Part shown: piece by piece, positions 3,928-29,635 of the stretch | Position numbering within the stretch: the first letter of the stretch is position 1 | Layout: the number at the start of each line of letters is the position of its first letter | From: Pueribacillus theae | GTDB lineage: Bacteria; Bacillota; Bacilli; Bacillales; UBA6769 | DNA length: 64,000 nucleotides | Direction: 5' to 3' | Assembly: GCF_003097615.1 (NCBI RefSeq) | Contig: NZ_QCZG01000013.1 | Span: forward strand, 16,016-80,015 | Notes under the pieces: generated by a model | Told to the model about the DNA's origin: nothing | Database searches by the model: none | What the model saw: the letters and a program-made list of their open reading frames with translations, nothing else | Position numbers and translations under genes: made by a program

Positions 3928-4203
3928 TGTTCCAATCCTCTCCTTTTCTTGATTTTATTTTGACTCTTTCCGTTAAAAAAGGCAACTTCTTGGCTTTAAA
4001 AACCATTACAATTTGATAGCATGTCTCGTTTTAAAGCTTTCTATTTTTTGTTATAATGTAAGGTATGTATTACAAGGGCGTTATGGAAAATGATAAAACT
4101 CCTTAAATGAATAGATGTTGCTAGAAGAAAATGAAGAATATGGGAATGGGTTTGGAGAGGAGAATCAAAACAAATTAAATAATTTCTGAAAGGCATGTGT
4201 AAA

Positions 4204-4476
4204 ATGGACAATGATAAACTTGATTTGATTTTAAGTGAGCTGAAAAACATCAAGTCCGAACAAGAACGTCATAGTGACTTACTCCATCAATTAATTAAAA
4301 CAGTTGGTGCCACAAACACAAAACTTGAGTCAACAGAATCGAACGTTCACAGGCTTCACGATGAACTCTCATCTCTCAAACAAGGACAAGAACGCCAAGA
4401 CAAAATTCTTGAATCGCTTGCCATGCGCTCCCTTGAACAAGAAACTGAACTGCGTGATTTGAAAAGGATTAAATAA
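4204..4476 (+). CDS. small coiled-coil hypothetical protein
   Basis: ORF 4195..4476. The ATG at 4204 (MDNDKL) has AAAGG upstream. Heptad-rich sequence (LESTESNVHRLHDELSSLKQ). A weak hairpin plus T-run follows at about 4545-4575. Confidence 0.45.
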   Translation: MDNDKLDLILSELKNIKSEQERHSDLLHQLIKTVGATNTKLESTESNVHRLHDELSSLKQGQERQDKILESLAMRSLEQETELRDLKRIK

Positions 4477-4770
4477 ATAACGCCCAAAATACAAATCAAC
4501 TCACAAAGTTTGTTAACATACGTTAACATACATAGAATGTACAGCACGGCATTTCGTCGTGTTTTATTTTTATTTACTATATAATGTCTAAAAAATAGAA
4601 GAAGACGAACTAGCAAAGGTCGCCTCCCTTTCTTACTAATACATACATTTATTCTTGTCGTTGTTGCAAAACAACAGCAGACACTTATCTGGATATCACA
4701 CCTCAGTATGAAAGTGATAATTGAATAAAATTGCCACCCATTTGAATTCTAACGTGGCAAAAACATGGCA

Positions 4771-4812
4771 AAATAACAAATTGAACCCTCGCCACTAATG
4801 CAGTAGTGACAA
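4771..4812 (-). terminator. stem-loop downstream of sufB
   Basis: GAACCCTCGCCACTAATGCAGTAGTGACAAGGGTTC with an inner CACTA/TAGTG stem. A T-rich tract follows on the minus strand. Confidence 0.4.
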
Positions 4813-4825
4813 GGGTTCCTATGAT

Positions 4826-6223
4826 TTATCCTACAGAACCTTCCATTTCGAATTTAATGAGACGGTTCATTTCAACGGCGTATTCCATTGGGAGTTCTTT
4901 CGTAAACGGCTCAATGAAGCCCATGACGATCATTTCAGTTGCTTCCTGCTCTGAGACACCGCGGCTCATTAAATAGAAGAGCTGTTCTTCCGATACTTTC
5001 GAAACTTTCGCTTCGTGTTCAAGCGAAATGTTATCGTTCATAATTTCGTTGTACGGAATGGTGTCTGAAGTAGAGATATTGTCCATCATTAAAGCATCAC
5101 ATTCAATGTTGGCGCGGGCCCCTTCTGCTTTCCGCCCAAAACGGACAATTCCTCGGTACGTTGTTTTTCCACCTTGCTTCGAAATTGATTTTGATACGAT
5201 AGAAGAGGTTGTGTTTGGCGCAAGGTGAATCATTTTCGCTCCAGCATCCTGGTGCTGCCCTTTTCCTGCAATTGCAATGGAAAGTGTTAAACCACGTGCA
5301 CCCTCGCCTCTTAAAAATACGGCAGGATATTTCATCGTAAGTTTTGAACCAATATTGCCGTCGATCCATTCCATCGTTGCGTTTTCATCACATACTGCGC
5401 GCTTTGTCACTAGGTTAAACACATTGTTGGCCCAGTTCTGGATCGTTGTGTAACGGCAGTATCCGTCCTTTTTCACGATGATCTCAACGACAGCGCTGTG
5501 AAGGGAGTTCGTTGTATAAACAGGTGCCGTACAGCCTTCTACATAATGGACAGAAGCCCCTTCATCAACGATGATAAGCGTTCTTTCAAATTGCCCCATA
5601 TTTTCCGAATTGATTCGAAAATAGGCTTGGAGAGGTGTTTCACACTTCACGCCTTTTGGAACATAGATGAAGGAACCGCCTGACCATACAGCTGAATTTA
5701 ACGCAGCAAATTTGTTATCTGATGGAGGTACAGTTTTTCCGAAATGTTCTCTAAAGATGTCTTCATTTTCTTTTAGGGCGGAATCTGTGTCTTTAAAGAC
5801 GATTCCCATGTCTTCCAAGTCTTTTTTCATGTTATGGTAGACAACTTCAGATTCATACTGGGCTGATACGCCTGCCAAGTACTTTTGCTCCGCTTCCGGA
5901 ATTCCAAGTTTATCAAATGTACGCTTAATTTCTTCCGGAACTTCATCCCATGAGCGTTCCGATTTTTCGGATGGTTTCACGTAATACGTAATTTCATCGA
6001 AGTTTAAATCGGATAAGTCGCCGCCCCATTGCGGCATCGGCATTTTATAAAATTGATCAAGCGATTTCAAGCGAAATTCGAGCATCCATTCAGGCTCATT
6101 TTTCATTCTCGAAATTTCTTCGACAATTTCACGGGTTAATCCGCGTTCCGAACGGAAAATAGAAACGTCTTTATCTCGAAAACCATATTTGTATTCGCCA
6201 ATTTCAGGCATTTTTTTAGCCAT
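4826..6223 (-). CDS. sufB: Fe-S cluster assembly protein SufB
   Basis: 465 aa with strong SufB family identity. Last gene of the sufCDSUB cluster. Confidence 0.9.
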
Positions 6224-6271
6224 TATTATTCCTCCTTTTCTAATTTAAAACAAGGAGCCCGTTATACTTCA

Positions 6272-9223
<2,952 letters not shown>

Positions 9224-22015: not shown

Positions 22016-23131
22016 TTAATAAGGCGTGGCCTGCCAGGTGTGATAGCCCAGATTAGCCAATGTAGCGAGAATGTTGCGCGTGCCGATCGCTTTTGTGATG
22101 GGTTGGAAACCCGTAGCTAAGAGCTGGCCAGCGAGAATCCGGCGACATGCTTCTGCCGCTAATGCGCCGGTTTGCAAGTAAGGCGAATTTCCTCGCAGTA
22201 CTACATTTACGCCACCGGTGTTACCACGACCGATACAAGAGATGACCGACCGGTTGACATCTGGATTCTCCCGGGATGGTTCTTCAGGAGTGATGGTTCC
22301 GCCAATTTCATTTGTAACCTTTTCCTGCTCTTTGGCACTCAAAGAACGATACTTTTCTTCGAACTCCTCGAGTACTTTTAAAATGCCGCCGAACATGACT
22401 TCATTCTTAAAGCCCACCAACGTCGCACAGTTGGTCACCCGCTCGTCATTCTCGAACCACACCGTTTCACCGCCACCAGACCAAGGTAAAGCTTTGAATA
22501 ACCGGTGCTGATCCGGAGTCTTAACATCATATGCTTTTGCGTATGGCCACATCCGCAAGGTATTGTTTTCTAGGTAGTATTGTGGCTTGGTGCACATCCT
22601 TAGAAAAGACTTGGTAGAAGTAGTGCTGGTAGACGAGTCTGCAAAATAAAGGATATCCAACGAGTTCACACCGGGAGTTTCCAACGCTATCTCAGCCGCC
22701 ATCATTCCAGCAGTCCACATATAAGCTGAGGCCGGAGCTAAAAGTAAGGCTTTCTTGTCAAACTTCTCACCATATTGATCGCGTAAGAAGAACATCCAAT
22801 CAGTTTCGCCGGTTGAGTCAAGGTAGTGGCAATTAGCCGTCAGTGCTGCCTTTACCACAGTTTCACCGACTTGCATAAACGGCCCTACAACGTTGTAGAC
22901 CACCTTTTTTCCTGTGAACAAATCGGTTAGCGCTGCTTCCTTATGGGCCACCTCGACTACGCTATAGTCTGCGTTCTCAAGCTCGGGCACTAGGGTACAT
23001 TGCTCTTTCAAGCGAGACATACTTCTTCCAGCGGCAATGAAAGGAATCCCCAGTTCAGCCAGATGTTTCATAATCAGTTTGCCTGTATAACCACTAGCAC
23101 CATAAACAACTACGTCTTTATTTTTCATCAT
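22016..23131 (-). CDS. saccharopine-dehydrogenase-like NAD(P)-binding oxidoreductase (putative enoyl reductase)
   Basis: 371 aa with an N-terminal Rossmann motif VVYGASGYTGK. GAGGAGG RBS. Last gene of the sigma-54 operon. GC-rich codon usage. Confidence 0.65.
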   Translation of the reverse strand: MMKNKDVVVYGASGYTGKLIMKHLAELGIPFIAAGRSMSRLKEQCTLVPELENADYSVVEVAHKEAALTDLFTGKKVVYNVVGPFMQVGETVVKAALTANCHYLDSTGETDWMFFLRDQYGEKFDKKALLLAPASAYMWTAGMMAAEIALETPGVNSLDILYFADSSTSTTSTKSFLRMCTKPQYYLENNTLRMWPYAKAYDVKTPDQHRLFKALPWSGGGETVWFENDERVTNCATLVGFKNEVMFGGILKVLEEFEEKYRSLSAKEQEKVTNEIGGTITPEEPSRENPDVNRSVISCIGRGNTGGVNVVLRGNSPYLQTGALAAEACRRILAGQLLATGFQPITKAIGTRNILATLANLGYHTWQATPY

Positions 23132-23146
23132 TACTGCCTCCTCTTT

Positions 23147-24778
23147 TTAATTGTTAACACGAACGGAATCAACCCGGTCCCCTCTGCGAGAGAAAATAAC
23201 TCCCTCACCAGTATTCAGGTGTTGAACTAGAAATCTCTCTACTGGTTTCTCCGACGCTGTTTTAGGAATTTCAGCAAGTACTTGAAAGTAATCGGGATGA
23301 GGGCCTTGACCGATAACCTCGCTAACCTTAGATAGAAAGTCATCGATAACTAGTTTTCTCTTTTCATTCAACACGATAGCGGCAATCACCGTTTTTTCAC
23401 CTGGAGAGTTGCTGTCTAAGGCTACACCGTAGACATACACATCGTTAATGTCGGGATGTTTGGCCAACGCTGTCATCATGTCCTCGACAATAATGAATTC
23501 GCCGTTTCTTCTGACAGCACTGCCACCACGATAGGAGAAGTATACCCAGCCTTCTTCATCTTTGTAGCCGCAGTCTCCGCTTCGAAACCAATTCCCCTTG
23601 GTTTTCTTTTTCGATGCCTCGGGATCCTTAAAGTAGTTGACTGGGTCTGCTTTACCATCGGCATTCCTGAAGCAGATCTCACCGATATCAAAAGGTGCAC
23701 AAGGTTGATCGTGTCTATCAAGAATTTCGCACTGGATACCAGCGGGCGGTTTACCAATGGATCCTACCGGACCAACTCCGGGCGGATTGAAAGTCATCCC
23801 GCCTTCTGCAGTTCCGTAAAATTCAAATATCTTGACGTTGAAACGCCTTTCGAACTCTTCCCACATAGCCGCCGGCATGCCAGCGCTTAAAACAAAACGA
23901 ACATTATGCTGGCGTTCAGAAGGACTTTCCGGCTCGGAGAAAAGCGCTGTCGCCATGCCACCGAGCAAATTGAAAGTGGTGCATCCGTAGTGTGCGACGA
24001 TGTCCCAGAGCCGGCTTTTCGTGAATGTTCGACTAATCACAAGAGGCAGACCCAAAGTAAGGGAATACCCTAAGCTAATAAGTTGAGCATTGGCGTGGGT
24101 TAGAGACAGACCAGTGTAGGGACGGTCCTCTGGTGTCAATCCGAGAAGCGTATGCAACGCGCCCACGCTGGCGAATCGATGGTAATTGGATTGAATGGCT
24201 TTAGGATCGCCAGTGGTGCCAGAAGTAAACAGCATTTGCATAGTATCGCTTAACGGTCTAGGCTTAGCTGGGCTCGGCAATTCTTTTTCCTTGTCAATAG
24301 ATTGAAAAATATGATTTAAGGATGCAACGTAAGGGGTAGAGCAGTAATCGTTATCACTGTCTATCACCCAAGCCCACTCTAGGGGCTCTGGCCATGCCTT
24401 AAGTGCATGAATTTTACCAAGACCTTCTTCAGATACTAGCGCTCCGCGACAATCGGTGTGCAGCACCATAAACGCCAGACGTTCGGGTTGCACCCTAACA
24501 TCGATAGGCACAAAAACTGTCCCCAATATTTCCGATGCTAGCATAGCTTCAACGAACTCTGGATGGTTTCTCATCACCAAAGCAAAACGATCGCCTTCCC
24601 TCAAGCCTACATTTGCTAGTGCAGAAGCCAACATCAAACCATTGTTTAACAATTGTTCAGCGGTACGATTTTCTTCCACGAATGTGTCGTCTTCGATTGA
24701 CACGAAGGTCAGTAATAACTTGTTGGGCTCCTTTTTCGCCCAATGTTGAACGGCTCCCAAAGGAGTAAACATATTCAT
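23147..24778 (-). CDS. AMP-dependent acyl-CoA synthetase/ligase
   Basis: 543 aa with AMP-binding motifs (TSGTTGDPK, YGTAEGG, GDCGY). The start ATG lies inside copy A of the tandem duplication, with AAGGTGA 7 nt upstream. Confidence 0.8.
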   Translation of the reverse strand: MNMFTPLGAVQHWAKKEPNKLLLTFVSIEDDTFVEENRTAEQLLNNGLMLASALANVGLREGDRFALVMRNHPEFVEAMLASEILGTVFVPIDVRVQPERLAFMVLHTDCRGALVSEEGLGKIHALKAWPEPLEWAWVIDSDNDYCSTPYVASLNHIFQSIDKEKELPSPAKPRPLSDTMQMLFTSGTTGDPKAIQSNYHRFASVGALHTLLGLTPEDRPYTGLSLTHANAQLISLGYSLTLGLPLVISRTFTKSRLWDIVAHYGCTTFNLLGGMATALFSEPESPSERQHNVRFVLSAGMPAAMWEEFERRFNVKIFEFYGTAEGGMTFNPPGVGPVGSIGKPPAGIQCEILDRHDQPCAPFDIGEICFRNADGKADPVNYFKDPEASKKKTKGNWFRSGDCGYKDEEGWVYFSYRGGSAVRRNGEFIIVEDMMTALAKHPDINDVYVYGVALDSNSPGEKTVIAAIVLNEKRKLVIDDFLSKVSEVIGQGPHPDYFQVLAEIPKTASEKPVERFLVQHLNTGEGVIFSRRGDRVDSVRVNN

Positions 24779-24880
24779 GATAAAATCACCTTGACTACGA
24801 TGGCAGCGGCATCATTATCAAGCCAGTTGCCACCGTTTTCCACTAAGACGCTCTTGGCGCCTTCCGTTTTATTTTTCATA
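24650..24880. repeat. copy A of a diverged ~250-bp tandem duplication spanning the thiolase-stop/synthetase-start junction
   Basis: Aligns base-for-base (roughly 80% by eye) with 24903..25133. Both copies carry an ATGA stop/start overlap (24775-24778 and 25027-25030). Confidence 0.7.
24775..24879 (-). pseudogene. decayed duplicate of the thiolase 3' end (MKNKTEGAKSVLVENGGNWLDNDAAAIVVKVILS*)
   Basis: Homologous to the C-terminus of the intact thiolase (...VEGAKVALAENGGGWLGNDAAAIVITVLSS). It lies in copy A, and its stop overlaps the synthetase ATG. Confidence 0.6.
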
Positions 24881-24902
24881 GTTACTCCATCCCCTTTCAC
24901 AT

Positions 24903-25133
24903 GTTGACATTAATGCAACCAATTCTGTCCGCCAATGTGTCGCCTTCGAGTAACACGAAGGTTATCAGTAATCTGTTAGGATTCTTTTCCGTCAAATATT
25001 GGACTGCCCCAAAGGAGAAAATATACTCATGATGAAAGCACTGTGATTACGATGGCAGCGGCATCATTACCAAGCCAACCACCGCCATTTTCCGCTAAGG
25101 CAACCTTGGCACCTTCTACTTGACGGGCACCGG
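24903..25133. repeat. copy B of the tandem duplication
   Basis: Contains the real thiolase 3' end plus a decayed synthetase 5' fragment. Confidence 0.7.
24992..25030 (-). pseudogene. decayed duplicate of the synthetase 5' end (MSIFSPLGQSNI*)
   Basis: Homologous to the real N-terminus MNMFTPLGAVQHW. Interrupted by a stop after 12 codons. Its ATG overlaps the thiolase TGA (ATGA). Confidence 0.55.
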
Positions 25134-26226
25134 CAAGACCTCGGAGTTGTTGAGTAAGCTCAAAAATCTGCGCTAAGCCGGTGGCTCCAATAGGATGACC
25201 CTTACGAATTAAGCCTCCAGAAACACTGACAGGAATTCGCCCACCAAGTGAAGTTGCTCCATCTTCCACCAACGCGGGGCCTTCACCTTGACCACACAAC
25301 CCGAGAGCCTCGTAATACATCATTTCCGCCGGCGAAGTAGCGTCGTGAAGCTCGACGAAATCGATTTCCGCGGGATCGATCCCTGCTTGCTGATAGGCTT
25401 TTAGCGCGGTGCTTGCGGTAAGATCCGGTAAATTCTCCAAGTTGGCCCCACTGGCTAAAACCGAACTGCGAACATATACCGACGTTGTTAGACCTAGCTT
25501 TTTTGCCATTTTCGGTGAAACAAGCACAGCGGCCGCGGCACCATCGCCAAGCGGTGAACACATCGGGAGTGTCAGTGGATCGACAATGGTTCTTGCATTC
25601 ATCACATCGTCCACGCTGAGCACATTATGAAATTGCGCGTATTCGTTCAGGCTTCCGTGGTAGGAGTTTTTGGCCGCGATTTGTGCGAAGTGTCGCTTTG
25701 TAGCCCCGCTCGCGTCCATATACTTTTGGGCCATATCCGCATAAATATCCATGAACACAGAATGCCTTTGCGCACTATCCACTTTTCTCCCTAAAAATCG
25801 AGTTAAAACATCTGGGTCAGTCGTATCTGTACAGCCCATAAAAACTTGCCCCACCCGTTGCCTCTCCGGATGGTAGAGCTTTTCCACCCCGAAAGCCAGT
25901 ACCGCATCATAAGCGCCTAGTTCTACCATGGCAGCGGCTTGTTGGAATGCGGTCGAAGCGGTGGCACATGCATTTTCCACATTTATAACTGGAATTTGTT
26001 TATCATTGATGTCTTGAAGCACCACTTGGCCGTTAATACAAACTTGTCCAGTGATTAGCGGCGCACCGGCGGATCCGGCCCAGACCGCTTCAATACTTGA
26101 AAAATCAAGACCGCTGTCACTCAACGCCTGATTGATAGCAAGCAATCCCAAATCTTTGAGAGTCTTATCCGAATGATCACCGAACGGTGTCATACCTACG
26201 CCAGCAATGATCGCTTTCGTATTCAA
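25027..26226 (-). CDS. thiolase-like protein, SCP2/nonspecific-lipid-transfer-type (acetyl-CoA acetyltransferase superfamily)
   Basis: 399-aa thiolase fold (NACATASTA, HDATSPAEMM). GC-rich. Confidence 0.75.
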   Translation of the reverse strand: MNTKAIIAGVGMTPFGDHSDKTLKDLGLLAINQALSDSGLDFSSIEAVWAGSAGAPLITGQVCINGQVVLQDINDKQIPVINVENACATASTAFQQAAAMVELGAYDAVLAFGVEKLYHPERQRVGQVFMGCTDTTDPDVLTRFLGRKVDSAQRHSVFMDIYADMAQKYMDASGATKRHFAQIAAKNSYHGSLNEYAQFHNVLSVDDVMNARTIVDPLTLPMCSPLGDGAAAAVLVSPKMAKKLGLTTSVYVRSSVLASGANLENLPDLTASTALKAYQQAGIDPAEIDFVELHDATSPAEMMYYEALGLCGQGEGPALVEDGATSLGGRIPVSVSGGLIRKGHPIGATGLAQIFELTQQLRGLAGARQVEGAKVALAENGGGWLGNDAAAIVITVLSS

Positions 26227-26228
26227 GA

Positions 26229-27521
26229 CTACATCCCCGCTCTTTCAAAATCGGTCAATAGATCCCCGCCCATAATGGACAGAGCTTCATTACAGCCATC
26301 TTCAATCAATGATGATCGTGCGTCCCGGAAGATTTTTTCTACGGGATATTCCAGTGTCACCCCATTACCACCAAACAACTGTACCGCGGCACTTGCCACT
26401 TCTAGGGCGTGCTCAGTGGCAGTGATTTTTGTAAACATAGCTGCTTGTAAGGCTGGCAAACGGGAAAGCATGTTGTAACGAGCCACTCTTCGTGTTATTG
26501 CACGTGATAGTTCAACTTTCCGTGCCATGTGGAAGATTCGGCGTTTGACGTCCTGATGCTGAATGATAGGAACACCACCTTGCCTTCTTTCGTGAGCGTA
26601 ATCGTAAGCATACTCATAGGCGGCTCTAGCACAACCGGTAAACACCGCGCCCATCAAGGTGTTGGCCTCACTATGTATGGCGTACAATCCTTTTTCGTAA
26701 TCTTTAGGCTCAATCAATAAATGATCAATATCCAATTTGACATTCTCAAAAAAGATTTCCCCTTGCGGTAAAGACCGTTGACCCATTTTCTCCAGCGCGG
26801 GACCCTTTGAGACACCCGGCGCATCCAACGGAACGATTACAACCGCTCCATGGGAAGGATCCACTTTGCCGTCTTTCGTTTTCACTTGGCAATAAAGAAT
26901 AGCTAGTTCCGCGATCGGGCCATTCGATACCCAGGCAGATTTTTGACCGTTAATAATAATCTTCCCATCGGTTATTTCGGCTGAACAACCTGGTGTTCCG
27001 TAGTCTCCGCCTTTCTGGAAAGCGCGTCCTTCAGGATCTAAGCTATCCGTTCCGTGATCGGGTTCAGTAATCGCCCAGCATCCGATCAAAGATTCGTCAT
27101 ATTTTTTTGCGACAAAGTCATTGCCAAATTTCGACGCCATATAATGCGGTAAAAGATCGACGCCCGTCGAGATAGCAAGCCCTGCATCTCCATAACCCAA
27201 TTCTTCGAAGATGACGCAGAAAATATCCGGAATATCTTCCGGCGCAAATGTTGCAAGGGCTTCCACATTGATTCCGAATTGGGTGTACTGTTTTCTGAAC
27301 TCCCAAAATTGAGACTCTTCAGCAATAACTTTTTCGGCTGACAGTCTGTCTAGGGTTTGTCCAATCGGGCGCATTTTGTTTTTCGCGAAATCATTCAGTT
27401 GAGTCTGTAACGCCGATGCGGTTTCATACAGTCCTATTTCCGCCCCTAAATCACCTAGTTTTACTTTGGGGCGTGCGGGCCATTCGTTAAACGTCATGAC
27501 ATCAGATAGATTAGTACTCAA
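26229..27521 (-). CDS. acyl-CoA dehydrogenase family protein
   Basis: 430-aa ACAD fold. TTG start with AGGAGG 9 nt upstream. An alternative ATG lies at 27497. First gene downstream of the sigma-54 promoter. Confidence 0.75.
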   Translation of the reverse strand: MSTNLSDVMTFNEWPARPKVKLGDLGAEIGLYETASALQTQLNDFAKNKMRPIGQTLDRLSAEKVIAEESQFWEFRKQYTQFGINVEALATFAPEDIPDIFCVIFEELGYGDAGLAISTGVDLLPHYMASKFGNDFVAKKYDESLIGCWAITEPDHGTDSLDPEGRAFQKGGDYGTPGCSAEITDGKIIINGQKSAWVSNGPIAELAILYCQVKTKDGKVDPSHGAVVIVPLDAPGVSKGPALEKMGQRSLPQGEIFFENVKLDIDHLLIEPKDYEKGLYAIHSEANTLMGAVFTGCARAAYEYAYDYAHERRQGGVPIIQHQDVKRRIFHMARKVELSRAITRRVARYNMLSRLPALQAAMFTKITATEHALEVASAAVQLFGGNGVTLEYPVEKIFRDARSSLIEDGCNEALSIMGGDLLTDFERAGM

Positions 27522-27569: not shown

Positions 27570-27585
27570 TGCAATTCTTATGCCA
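27570..27585 (-). promoter_or_regulatory. sigma-54 (-24/-12) promoter TGGCAT-aagaa-TTGCA
   Basis: Reverse complement of tgcaattcttatgcca. Matches the consensus TGGCAC-N5-TTGCA exactly in spacing and at the GG/GC dinucleotides. Lies about 50 nt upstream of the ACAD start. Confidence 0.75.
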
Positions 27586-27603
27586 ACCTTAAAAACATCA
27601 AAA

Positions 27604-27700
27604 AGCACAGGACATAAAGAACCTGTGCTGTAAAGTAAGGTAACAAGGAACTGTCACGTTACAGTATGTGACACTGTAACAAGTTGTAACGTGACACTTT
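27604..27700 (-). promoter_or_regulatory. enhancer (UAS) region with three inverted-repeat sites
   Basis: The sites are AGCACAGG-N10-CCTGTGCT (27604-27629), TGTCACGTTACA (27652-27663) and its reverse complement TGTAACGTGACA (27685-27696). They have the TGT-N-ACA architecture of bacterial enhancer-binding protein sites, at about -40 to -140 from the sigma-54 promoter. Confidence 0.6.
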
Positions 27701-29635
27701 TTACTTTAGTTGAAATTCCTCTTTTTTTCGATAGATTGTCATGCGGGACACATTCAATAATTTTGCAGCTTGTGTTACATTCCCATTTGTCTTTTCCAGT
27801 GCTAGCATTAGCTCATTTTTCCCAATTTTAAATTTCTGCTGCGGAAAACGTTGTTTTTCATTCACTTTCTTCTTATTGGCCGGTAAGATTTCCTTTGGTA
27901 AATGTTTTGGCAAAATTTGTCTCCCGTTCGCATTAAATTTTGACTGTTCGATACAATTTTTTAACTGGCGGATGTTCCCCGGCCATTCGTACTTCATCAG
28001 TAAATCTATTGCTTCACCAGACATCTCGAATAACTTTTTTCCATTCTCAGTAAGGAAAGAGTCAACAAGTAACGGAATATCATCTTTTCTTTCGCGCAAC
28101 GGAGGGAGAGAAAGAGAAATCACATTCAACCGGTAATACAAGTCTTCCCTAAAATTCCCTTTTCTTACCTCTTCCTTTAAATTTTTATGTGTTGCGCAAA
28201 TAACCCTGACATTAATCGGAATAGGTTCTTTTGCGCCTATAGGAAAAACTTCTCTTTCTTCAAGTACCCGTAGTAGATAAACTTGTATGTCGATAGGTAA
28301 ATCAGCAATTTCGTCCAAAAAAATGGTTCCGAGGTCAGCTAACAAAAATTTCCCCTTTTTTCCTTTGGACTTAGCCCCTGTAAAGCTTCCTCCTTCATAG
28401 CCAAACAGTTCGCTGGCAATCAAATCTTTTGGGATCGCTCCACAATTTACTGCAACAAAAGGATATTCACTTCTCGGTCCAAAATAATGAATCGACTGCA
28501 CTAATACCTCTTTCCCTGTTCCGGTCTCTCCAAATATCATCATATTTTGATCACTAAAAGCTGCCTTTTTCGCTTTCTTTATCACTTTTAACATTTCTGG
28601 ATCATTCGTTACAATATTACTAAAATCTTTCTTAGCTGAATTTTTTGATAATTTTAGCAATTTATAGGGTTGCTTTTGAAAAATAACAATTCCCCCAAGC
28701 AAATTACCGCCTAGCTTGTAGGATTGAACATTTACTTTCCACAAATTATCAGCCTGCTGAAATTGTTCAATATTAAATCGTCCCAGTGATTCTAAATTTT
28801 GTACCTCTGAAAATTGTAGGATGTCATATATTGATGAACCTTCTGATATATTTAATAGATAACTAGCCGCTTTGTTACATCTAGTAACTTTTCCATTTAT
28901 GTCAAAGATCAGAAACGGATCCTGCATAAAATCTAGAAGAGATTGCAATGATAATAAGTGATCTTCCATGAGGCGATGCCCTAAAGCCTTTTCGATCTGC
29001 AAAGCCTGATTTATAACGAGATGAATATTATGCGCATGAACAAGTTCTTTCTCGCCAGTAATATTTAGAATTCCAATTATTTGATTGGTCATAGGATCTC
29101 TTATAGGTGCTGCTGAACATACCCAACGATGCCAACCTTGGCAATAGTGTTCGCTTGAAAAAATTTGAATAGGTTTTTCTTCAATTAATGCTGTCCCAAT
29201 AGCATTTGTACCTGTGCTAAGTTCATCCCAGTTACTTCCAGGTACAAAACGATGTCTTTCAACATCCATCCACATTTGGCTGTTCGATTTCGCTTCAATG
29301 ATTACTCCGGTTTTATCACATAAAACCACAGCAATTTTTTGATCAAAGAAATATTGATGAAGTTGCTCCATATATGGATTGGCAATATCTAATAAGAATT
29401 CGTTTTGTTCTATTTTTTCCTTAAGAGAATCACCTTTATATACTAAATCGGCTTCTTTCTTTAACGGATTTATAAAGCTTTGCTTACATCTTCTCCAAGA
29501 TGACAGAATAATCGGGCGCAGATCTTTAGGAAAAACATCCGAAGAATGAAAGCGCTCCCATTTTTTCATAAGAGATTTTTCTAGGGAATGGAATTCATTA
29601 AAAGCACCTACAACCATATTGCGATATTTTTTCAT
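27701..29635 (-). CDS. sigma-54-dependent Fis-family transcriptional activator (AcoR-like: N-terminal GAF/PAS sensor, AAA+ domain, C-terminal HTH)
   Basis: 644 aa with Walker A GETGTGKE, the sigma-54 contact motif GSFTGA, RERKDDI, and a C-terminal HTH (QAAKLLNVSRMTIYRK). GGAGGG RBS. This gene has lower GC than the operon it presumably controls. Confidence 0.85.
   Translation of the reverse strand: MKKYRNMVVGAFNEFHSLEKSLMKKWERFHSSDVFPKDLRPIILSSWRRCKQSFINPLKKEADLVYKGDSLKEKIEQNEFLLDIANPYMEQLHQYFFDQKIAVVLCDKTGVIIEAKSNSQMWMDVERHRFVPGSNWDELSTGTNAIGTALIEEKPIQIFSSEHYCQGWHRWVCSAAPIRDPMTNQIIGILNITGEKELVHAHNIHLVINQALQIEKALGHRLMEDHLLSLQSLLDFMQDPFLIFDINGKVTRCNKAASYLLNISEGSSIYDILQFSEVQNLESLGRFNIEQFQQADNLWKVNVQSYKLGGNLLGGIVIFQKQPYKLLKLSKNSAKKDFSNIVTNDPEMLKVIKKAKKAAFSDQNMMIFGETGTGKEVLVQSIHYFGPRSEYPFVAVNCGAIPKDLIASELFGYEGGSFTGAKSKGKKGKFLLADLGTIFLDEIADLPIDIQVYLLRVLEEREVFPIGAKEPIPINVRVICATHKNLKEEVRKGNFREDLYYRLNVISLSLPPLRERKDDIPLLVDSFLTENGKKLFEMSGEAIDLLMKYEWPGNIRQLKNCIEQSKFNANGRQILPKHLPKEILPANKKKVNEKQRFPQQKFKIGKNELMLALEKTNGNVTQAAKLLNVSRMTIYRKKEEFQLK

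Follow-up and report, generated by a model that had tools for sequence, protein, structure and literature searches.

A tandemly duplicated thiolase–ligase junction in Pueribacillus theae whose thiolase 3' relic may act as a translational coupler

The uof-fur pair of Escherichia coli is an example of a short upstream open reading frame (ORF) that delivers ribosomes to the gene coupled to it, and in the refactoring of phage T7 overlapping genes were reportedly separated by duplicating their shared segment. Reporter work has established that termination-reinitiation collapses at gaps of more than about 20 nt and that the last 15-99 nt of the upstream gene suffice for it (PMC10666635), and, according to a review, ribosome delivery to a coupled gene may be the only purpose of short upstream ORFs (PMC12548453). 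The locus presented here lies in a stretch of 64,000 nt of contig NZ_QCZG01000013.1 from Pueribacillus theae (the window, labeled WIN in locus comparisons) and comprises the long spacer between a thiolase gene and an acyl-CoA ligase gene, in an operon whose genes are all encoded on the minus strand. In this spacer, an ancient tandem duplication of the thiolase-stop/ligase-start junction has left two gene relics with different fates, and comparative sequence analysis suggests that one of them, the thiolase 3' relic, serves on balance as a short leader ORF and re-establishes translational coupling beside a new Shine-Dalgarno (SD) sequence of the ligase gene.

The duplication is evident from the alignment of the spacer with its flanking genes. 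The repeat search returned two direct-repeat blocks in register, one of 109 nt with 81% identity (24756-24864 vs 25008-25116, spacing 252) and the other of 86 nt with 74% identity (24675-24760 vs 24928-25013, spacing 253), which blastn merges into a single match of 194 nt (24671-24864 vs 24923-25116, 78.3% identity, E = 1e-29 to 2e-32); a MAFFT alignment of the two copies concurs with this match, and no third copy was found by blastn in the 64-kb window. Copy A (24671-24864, minus strand) consists of a thiolase remnant, a new ATGA junction and the intact 5' end of the ligase gene, and copy B (24923-25116, minus strand) consists of the intact 3' end of the thiolase gene, namely its final ~90 nt, the old ATGA junction and a dead remnant of the ligase 5' end. 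The copies are separated by the duplication joint (24880-24922, minus strand), which is not confidently alignable to either parent gene and carries the SD of the ORF formed by the thiolase remnant. The spacer itself measures 248 nt and is the sole long gap of the operon, whose intergenic gaps are 2, 248, and 15 nt in the gap table. Since the repeat period of 252-253 nt equals this spacer plus the 4-nt overlap, the arrangement fits a simple head-to-tail unit. An initial annotation, made from the letters of the window, had proposed a tandem duplication at the ATGA shared by the thiolase stop and the ligase start, and the highly significant self-alignment (194 nt, E about 1e-30) bears this out, as it does the ~80% identity estimated between the units (78-81%, i.e., 78.3% with blastn and 81% in the first block) and the ATGA overlap expected in each of them (25030-25027 and 24778-24775). 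The four peptides quoted there also occur exactly in the sequence (MSIFSPLGQSNI followed by a stop, MNMFTPLGAVQHW, and those ending in GAKSVLVENGGNWLDNDAAAIVVKVILS and GAKVALAENGGGWLGNDAAAIVITVLSS). The units of ~230 bp that it delimited (24650-24880 and 24903-25133) are genuine repeats but were drawn too long, with edges ~20 nt too wide on each side of a detectable homology of ~194 nt.

Both genes flanking the spacer are intact in the ORF list. Upstream lies an SCP2-type thiolase gene (25027-26226, minus strand, 399 aa, Pfam Thiolase_N and Thiolase_C_1), whose homologues are 99-71% identical, and downstream an ATP-dependent acyl-CoA ligase gene (23147-24778, minus strand, 543 aa, Pfam AMP-binding), whose product is 100% identical to the NCBI protein "ATP-dependent acyl-CoA ligase" from Pueribacillus theae. 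The long spacer recurs in the relatives L001 (thiolase 99% identical to that of the window, 248-nt gap), L002 (89%, 246-nt gap) and L096 (77%, 253-nt gap), and modified forms of the same layout are present in L003 (thiolase 83% identical), L094 (ligase 80%) and L095 (ligase 73%). In L005, whose thiolase is 80% identical, the two genes meet in a single ATGA overlap. Moreover, the estimated gap is 30 nt or less in ~55 of the 64 proteobacterial outgroup loci of the same gene order among the matches listed, with thiolase identities of at most 62% and, in many of them, an ATGA or GTGA where the thiolase ends; the scan of species-representative genomes that provided outgroups contained one Firmicute (L014) among the matches listed and no close relatives. 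The single ATGA of L005 and the tight outgroup junctions indicate that the overlapping junction is ancestral and the long spacer derived, as anticipated in the initial annotation, which expected a single ATGA junction in orthologous clusters: L005 has it, and most proteobacterial outgroups show a single tight or overlapping junction. Adjacent copies, single-copy orthologues and outgroups, and copies derived from their own lineage, the last at the limited resolution that such short segments allow, together identify a tandem head-to-tail duplication.

The duplicated architecture has a single origin. The thiolase remnants of WIN, L001, and L002 form one cluster and their ligase remnants likewise, so that the sequences group by type of copy and not by genome, and the remnants of these three loci have derived states in common, namely a 1-nt deletion and VVKVI replacing ITVL. 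The joint sequence (GTAGTAACTATGAAAAATAAAGTG-like) is matched in neither of the genes and is recognizably homologous in WIN, L001, L002, L003, L094, and L096, and this shared joint implies that the duplicated layout arose once. Judged by fourfold-degenerate sites, which are 49-73% identical between WIN and L002, 37-53% between WIN and L003 and near saturation beyond, the event is ancient. The 78-81% identity between the copies is not a date, because gene conversion between them is still ongoing: in L002, a remnant tract of 42 nt is identical to the intact copy of that locus, WIN shows 7 differences in these columns, and outside the tract the identity between copies is 37/54 in both L002 and WIN. 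This 42-nt segment is a gene-conversion tract (P about 5e-4). Dating by copy identity was likewise ruled out by the lineage-dependent decay of the remnants, since the thiolase remnant is 71-78% identical to the thiolase end of its own lineage in WIN, L001, and L002, 63% in L094 and 51% in L096.

The two extra halves produced by the duplication have met different fates, although the initial annotation regarded both as decayed. Being partial from birth, neither fragment decayed from a working copy. Decay does hold for the ligase 5' remnant (24923-25026, minus strand, possibly extending towards 24895), which reads MSIFSPLGQSNI and stops after 12 codons (ORF 25030-24992). In the three-frame translation, a 1-nt deletion near 25007 is followed by ~30-40 homologous codons in another frame, and the remnant is longer than the 12 stop-interrupted codons first attributed to it, the stop itself being correctly placed. 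This deletion is common to WIN, L001, and L002, several stops have accumulated in L003, L095, and L096, and in L094 the remnant is almost wholly deleted. By its truncated homology and disabling mutations, the ligase 5' remnant is, at the level of sequence, a pseudogene fragment and junk.

The thiolase 3' remnant (24775-24879, minus strand) has kept its translation signals, an open frame and the stop/start overlap, and neither a stop nor a frameshift, as would mark a pseudogene fragment, was found in it in the five unfused lineages (WIN, L001, L002, L094, and L096). In the window, it constitutes a 34-codon ORF (MKNKTEGAKSVLVENGGNWLDNDAAAIVVKVILS and a stop), the proposed leader, and what had been described as a 34-codon fragment is, at that same length, a complete ORF with its own ATG (24879-24877) and its own SD (AAAGGGGA, 24897-24890, minus strand) inside the duplication joint. 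Its TGA overlaps the ligase ATG in the new ATGA (24775-24778, minus strand). The ORF is open in all five unfused lineages, with an ATG start and 34, 34, 34, 33, and 34 codons, respectively, and in each of them the pairing of its SD with the anti-SD amounts to -11.9 to -13.9 kcal/mol. The stop overlaps the ligase start in the same five lineages, as ATGA in WIN, L001, L002, and L094 and as TAATG in L096, which are the -4 and -1 nt stop/start overlaps of termination-reinitiation pairs. Indels within the thiolase remnant are in frame or produce fusions, whereas those within the ligase remnant are out of frame. For three roughly independent lineages, the chance of an open frame is 0.19, 0.035, and about 0.05 when estimated from the local stop density and 0.39, 0.28, and about 0.18 in a substitution-only simulation, which amounts to a joint probability between about 3e-4 and 0.02 across both estimates. 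In addition, fourfold sites are only 27-65% identical among the lineages that keep both SD and ATG, and at such divergence a neutral SD and ATG should have eroded.

The start of the ligase gene has also changed. A new SD (AAGGTGAT, 24785-24792, minus strand) stands 6 nt ahead of the ligase ATG. Compared with the intact copy (ACAGTGCT), it was created by three substitutions, and WIN, L001, L002, and L094 all retain it. The initial annotation had noticed a new ribosome binding site, AAGGTGA, inside the thiolase remnant, and it is indeed there (24792-24786), conserved and far stronger than the old site, with anti-SD pairing in WIN of -10.2 vs -2.3 kcal/mol. The SD at the present ligase starts ranges from -10.2 to -19.4 kcal/mol and is strongest in L096, and that of the old start site within the intact thiolase end ranges from -0.3 to -6.0 kcal/mol, the overlapping junction of L005 being the -6.0 case. 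At the old ATGA of the window (25027-25030, minus strand), the TGA is still used by the thiolase, and the ATG opens only the dead 12-codon ORF.

The most probable course of events is as follows. Ancestrally, this Bacillales operon had an ATGA in which the thiolase stop overlapped the ligase start, a translationally coupled junction. A tandem duplication of ~253 nt, comprising the last ~100 nt of the thiolase gene and the first ~150 nt of the ligase gene, then separated both genes by ~249 nt, and neither of the two extra pieces was ever a whole gene. Directly after the thiolase stop, the ligase 5' piece is non-functional, free to decay and to be lost. In turn, the thiolase 3' piece directly before the ligase gene, preceded by a strong SD and an ATG at the joint, would be translated as a leader of ~34 codons whose peptide is irrelevant, and ribosomes ending this leader at the preserved ATGA may re-initiate on the ligase start or open it up. 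The ligase start has also gained its own strong SD within the relic, which would allow direct initiation alongside. Finally, a 50-nt deletion in some lineages turned the leader into an N-terminal extension of the ligase, 17-19 residues long. The duplication must have broken the coupling between thiolase and ligase, and a relic ORF with an SD and an ATGA is well placed to restore ribosome delivery or to keep the ligase start unfolded. The earlier proposal that the event uncoupled the two genes holds for the break of the original junction and not for a simple loss, given that coupling was probably re-routed through the relic leader ORF. It is about an even call whether, in the fuller version of this account, a fragment that was non-functional at birth was domesticated as a sequence-independent leader, with termination-reinitiation at the original ATGA kept past synonymous saturation, and was absorbed as an N-terminal extension in sister lineages.

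The fusions themselves are directly visible. L003, L095, and L010 carry the same 50-nt deletion, which removes the 3' part of the remnant together with the ATGA, and their ligases begin with 17-19 additional residues (MENKVKSNKGALSKKSNPT-, MNNKHKNSTSSVNNNLK-, or MEKKADQSNLAKAANKKPR-). As 50 equals 2 modulo 3, the deletion provides precisely the shift needed from the thiolase frame into the ligase frame, and by turning the leader start into the ligase start it shows that the joint site is usable as a real initiation site. The sequences establish the duplication with its age and common ancestry, the diverging fates of its halves, the SD strengths, the conversion between copies and the fusion. 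Translation of the leader in the unfused lineages, indicated indirectly by the strong conserved SD and ATG and by the use of this site as the ligase start in the fused lineages, and a benefit of this translation to ligase expression are inferred.

Several points weigh against a coupling leader. The strong SD of the ligase start (-10.2 to -19.4 kcal/mol) means that the ligase may not need coupling, and its dependence on the leader may be partial. The statistical support for maintenance of the ORF is moderate, resting on three roughly independent lineages, and the frame began open and can be repaired without selection by conversion from the intact thiolase copy, as in L002. Between WIN and L001, the whole spacer diverges by 6.9%, about the synonymous rate (5.2%). 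No conserved RNA structure masking the ligase start emerged from the fold scores or the covariation analysis, and neither the exact breakpoints nor the source of the SD and ATG in the joint could be traced from the alignments. The by-eye candidate for the breakpoint, the microhomology GAAGGYG, was dropped, as beyond the motif the joint fits the thiolase side better.

The same figures give substance to the best-surviving alternative, a possible though less probable one, in which the spacer is a pure mutational scar: both leftovers would be neutral junk, the ligase would be translated only from its new SD, and the ORF, SD, and ATG of the thiolase remnant would persist by chance, slow decay, or repeated gene conversion. 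The near-neutral divergence between WIN and L001, the unconstrained leader peptide, the strong SD of the ligase, the demonstrated conversion in L002, and a joint probability of only about 0.02 under the substitution-only simulation are all compatible with it. However, conversion fails as an explanation for L094 and L096, where identity between the remnant and the thiolase end of the same lineage has dropped to 63% and 51% but the frame remains open, of the same length and ending on the ligase start. Moreover, the SD and ATG of the joint have no intact donor copy for conversion, yet are strong in five lineages, and the equally old ligase remnant gathers stops and is deleted.

An origin by unequal crossover between diverged operon alleles, for instance after horizontal transfer, would have brought together a thiolase and a ligase from different lineages with overlapping ends. 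The copies are ~20% diverged with few indels and the gene trees are partly incongruent, since L005 is 80% identical in the thiolase vs 70% in the ligase and L003 shifts in the dehydrogenase tree, as could be expected from such a crossover. Nevertheless, both types of remnant are nearest to the intact genes of their own clade and not to those of L005, L006, L010, or L011, with identities of 75-82% vs 58-68% for the thiolase remnant and 65-70% vs 46-60% for the ligase remnant. Ongoing gene conversion accounts for the retained similarity, and the length of the spacer matches a simple head-to-tail unit. A foreign-allele or recombination origin is thus improbable and was rejected on the basis of copy-level identities and trees, despite the partial incongruence.

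Still less credible is a functional small protein encoded by the 34-codon ORF, although its SD, ATG, and length are conserved in five lineages. Substitutions are spread evenly over the codon positions (12/12/13 between WIN and L094 and 12/15/9 between WIN and L096), and this pattern led to the rejection of a functional micropeptide. By eye, the peptide is about one third identical between WIN and L094 and unrecognizable as thiolase in L096, the ORF has no Pfam match, and only the last few codons are conserved, which overlap the ligase SD; by this pattern, the remnant peptide evolves neutrally. The weakest alternative, an assembly artefact or chance similarity, has practically no probability left, in view of an E value of about 1e-30 and of the same architecture in L001, L002, L003, L094, L095, and L096, independent metagenome assemblies that exclude an artefact: the contigs of the close homologues come from different samples and assemblers, and seven samples from two repositories (Logan and ENA), each assembled on its own, yield the duplicated layout with lineage-specific substitutions.

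The spacer was also searched for other elements. It has no Rfam match at E up to 1, its RNA fold is no better than those of shuffled sequences (z = -0.94), and the consensus fold (-12 kcal/mol) shows no covariation (term of -0.08). No terminator was detected in it, and its promoter-like matches reach only 9 of 12 positions, one of which, TGGAAA-17-GATAAT, is by eye not kept in L002. With these results in Rfam, folding, covariation, and terminator searches, the spacer lacks the hallmarks of a structured cis-regulatory RNA, and a regulatory RNA, terminator, or internal promoter was rejected. In the region scanned, antisense ORFs (38-43 aa) lack conservation. A weak helix may pair leader codons 10-12 with the ligase SD. 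On the minus strand, GGAGTAA upstream of the leader ATG (24879-24886) complements TTACTCC in ligase codons 4-6 (24765-24772), forming the outer helix of the minimum-energy fold; a G -> T change is present in L001 and L002, and the helix is lost from the consensus fold.

Two other relatives have shorter gaps between thiolase and ligase, of 27 nt in L006 and 119 nt in L011 (L011 7195-7313). Their motifs AAGGTGA and ATAGGGGGG are suggestive of further-deleted descendants of the same duplication, which could not be established. Within the spacer of L011 lies a perfect 9-bp inverted repeat (TTCGTAGTT...AACTACGAA), and the SD there, ATAGGGGGG, is similar to that of L010. The locus with the single overlap, L005 (thiolase 3946-5145, ligase 5142-6773), is 80-83% identical to the window in the dehydrogenase, thiolase, and DUF5938 genes, but its ligase, a basal branch among the Firmicute ligases, is only 70% identical; this low identity could reflect replacement of the ligase or fast evolution. 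In L005, an AraC-type regulator replaces the sigma-54 activator and a flavin monooxygenase gene lies downstream.

The operon of the window (22016-27521) begins with an acyl-CoA dehydrogenase gene (26229-27521, minus strand) and ends with a saccharopine-dehydrogenase-like/DUF5938 reductase gene (22016-23131, minus strand). A regex scan located a sigma-54-type promoter (TGGCATAAGAATTGCA, 27570-27585, minus strand) upstream of the acyl-CoA dehydrogenase gene, and the adjacent gene (27701-29635) encodes a sigma-54 activator of the MimR_N-GAF-sigma-54 type. About 70-110 nt upstream of the promoter, a perfect 12-nt inverted repeat (TGTCACGTTACA...TGTAACGTGACA, 27652-27696, minus strand) is likely a candidate binding site (upstream activating sequence) for this neighboring activator. 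Between the activator gene and the promoter, a hairpin and, after it, a run of T (AGCACAGG...CCTGTGCTTTTT, ~27600-27630, minus strand) resemble an intrinsic terminator, presumably that of the activator gene.

The four-gene cluster is rare in Firmicutes, being represented by metagenome contigs and one Bacillaceae metagenome-assembled genome among the matches listed, and its nearest named relatives belong to Sphingomonadaceae and other Proteobacteria, with ~60% identity and the gene order kept (loci L015-L093). This distribution suggests horizontal acquisition of the cluster. Moreover, mobile-element genes adjoin the operon in several relatives, namely a faint match to a replication-relaxation family in L002 (10410-11615), ISL3 transposase fragments in L006, L007, and L008 (L006-L008 10811-11550) and an rve integrase in L008 (816-1713), a hint of movement of the cluster between genomes.

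Tandem duplications are commonplace, as are gene remnants, and what is unusual here is that related genomes preserve every stage: the ATGA junction still intact, its duplicated form with both remnants, the loss of one remnant, the other one kept as a short ORF that has its own ribosome binding site and, lastly, the in-frame fusion. If the leader is translated and useful, the locus would be a natural demonstration that a short translated 3' stub of an upstream gene suffices for coupling, matching the reporter experiments in E. coli, and would offer a concrete bacterial route to short upstream ORFs and N-terminal extensions, traceable from gene fragment to coupler ORF and on to new coding sequence. 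For annotation, it means that long spacers within tight operons may hide unannotated coupler ORFs.

Among the described systems, the locus is closest to coupling at ATGA and TAATG overlaps (Huber et al. 2019, 2023; PMC6728339, PMC10666635), as the ancestral thiolase/ligase junction and the present leader/ligase junctions have a -4 overlap (-1 in L096) and the upstream 3' piece of ~100 nt is within the experimentally sufficient 15-99 nt. Unlike in those pairs, the upstream partner is a duplicated 3' fragment with its own start and not a real gene. The relic also resembles short leader ORFs (PMC12548453) in having its own SD, an unconstrained peptide, and a stop overlapping the start of the next gene, although its origin is traceable to a fragment of the neighboring gene, it lies inside an operon instead of in a 5' leader, and no regulatory role is evident. 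As in the tandem duplication–random loss (TDRL) model of mitochondrial genomes (PMC2576254), a head-to-tail duplication is followed by degradation of redundant pieces and leaves a long spacer still homologous to the flanking genes. The present case differs in being bacterial, in the proposed co-option of one remnant, and in that only the junction was duplicated and not whole genes, so that, in contrast to TDRL, no choice between functional copies was involved. The likeness to the T7 refactoring is that duplication of an overlap physically separates two coupled genes and leaves both intact, with the differences that here the event was natural and duplicated far more sequence than the overlap. 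Taken against these systems, the case is an instructive evolution from known mechanisms and not a new kind of system.

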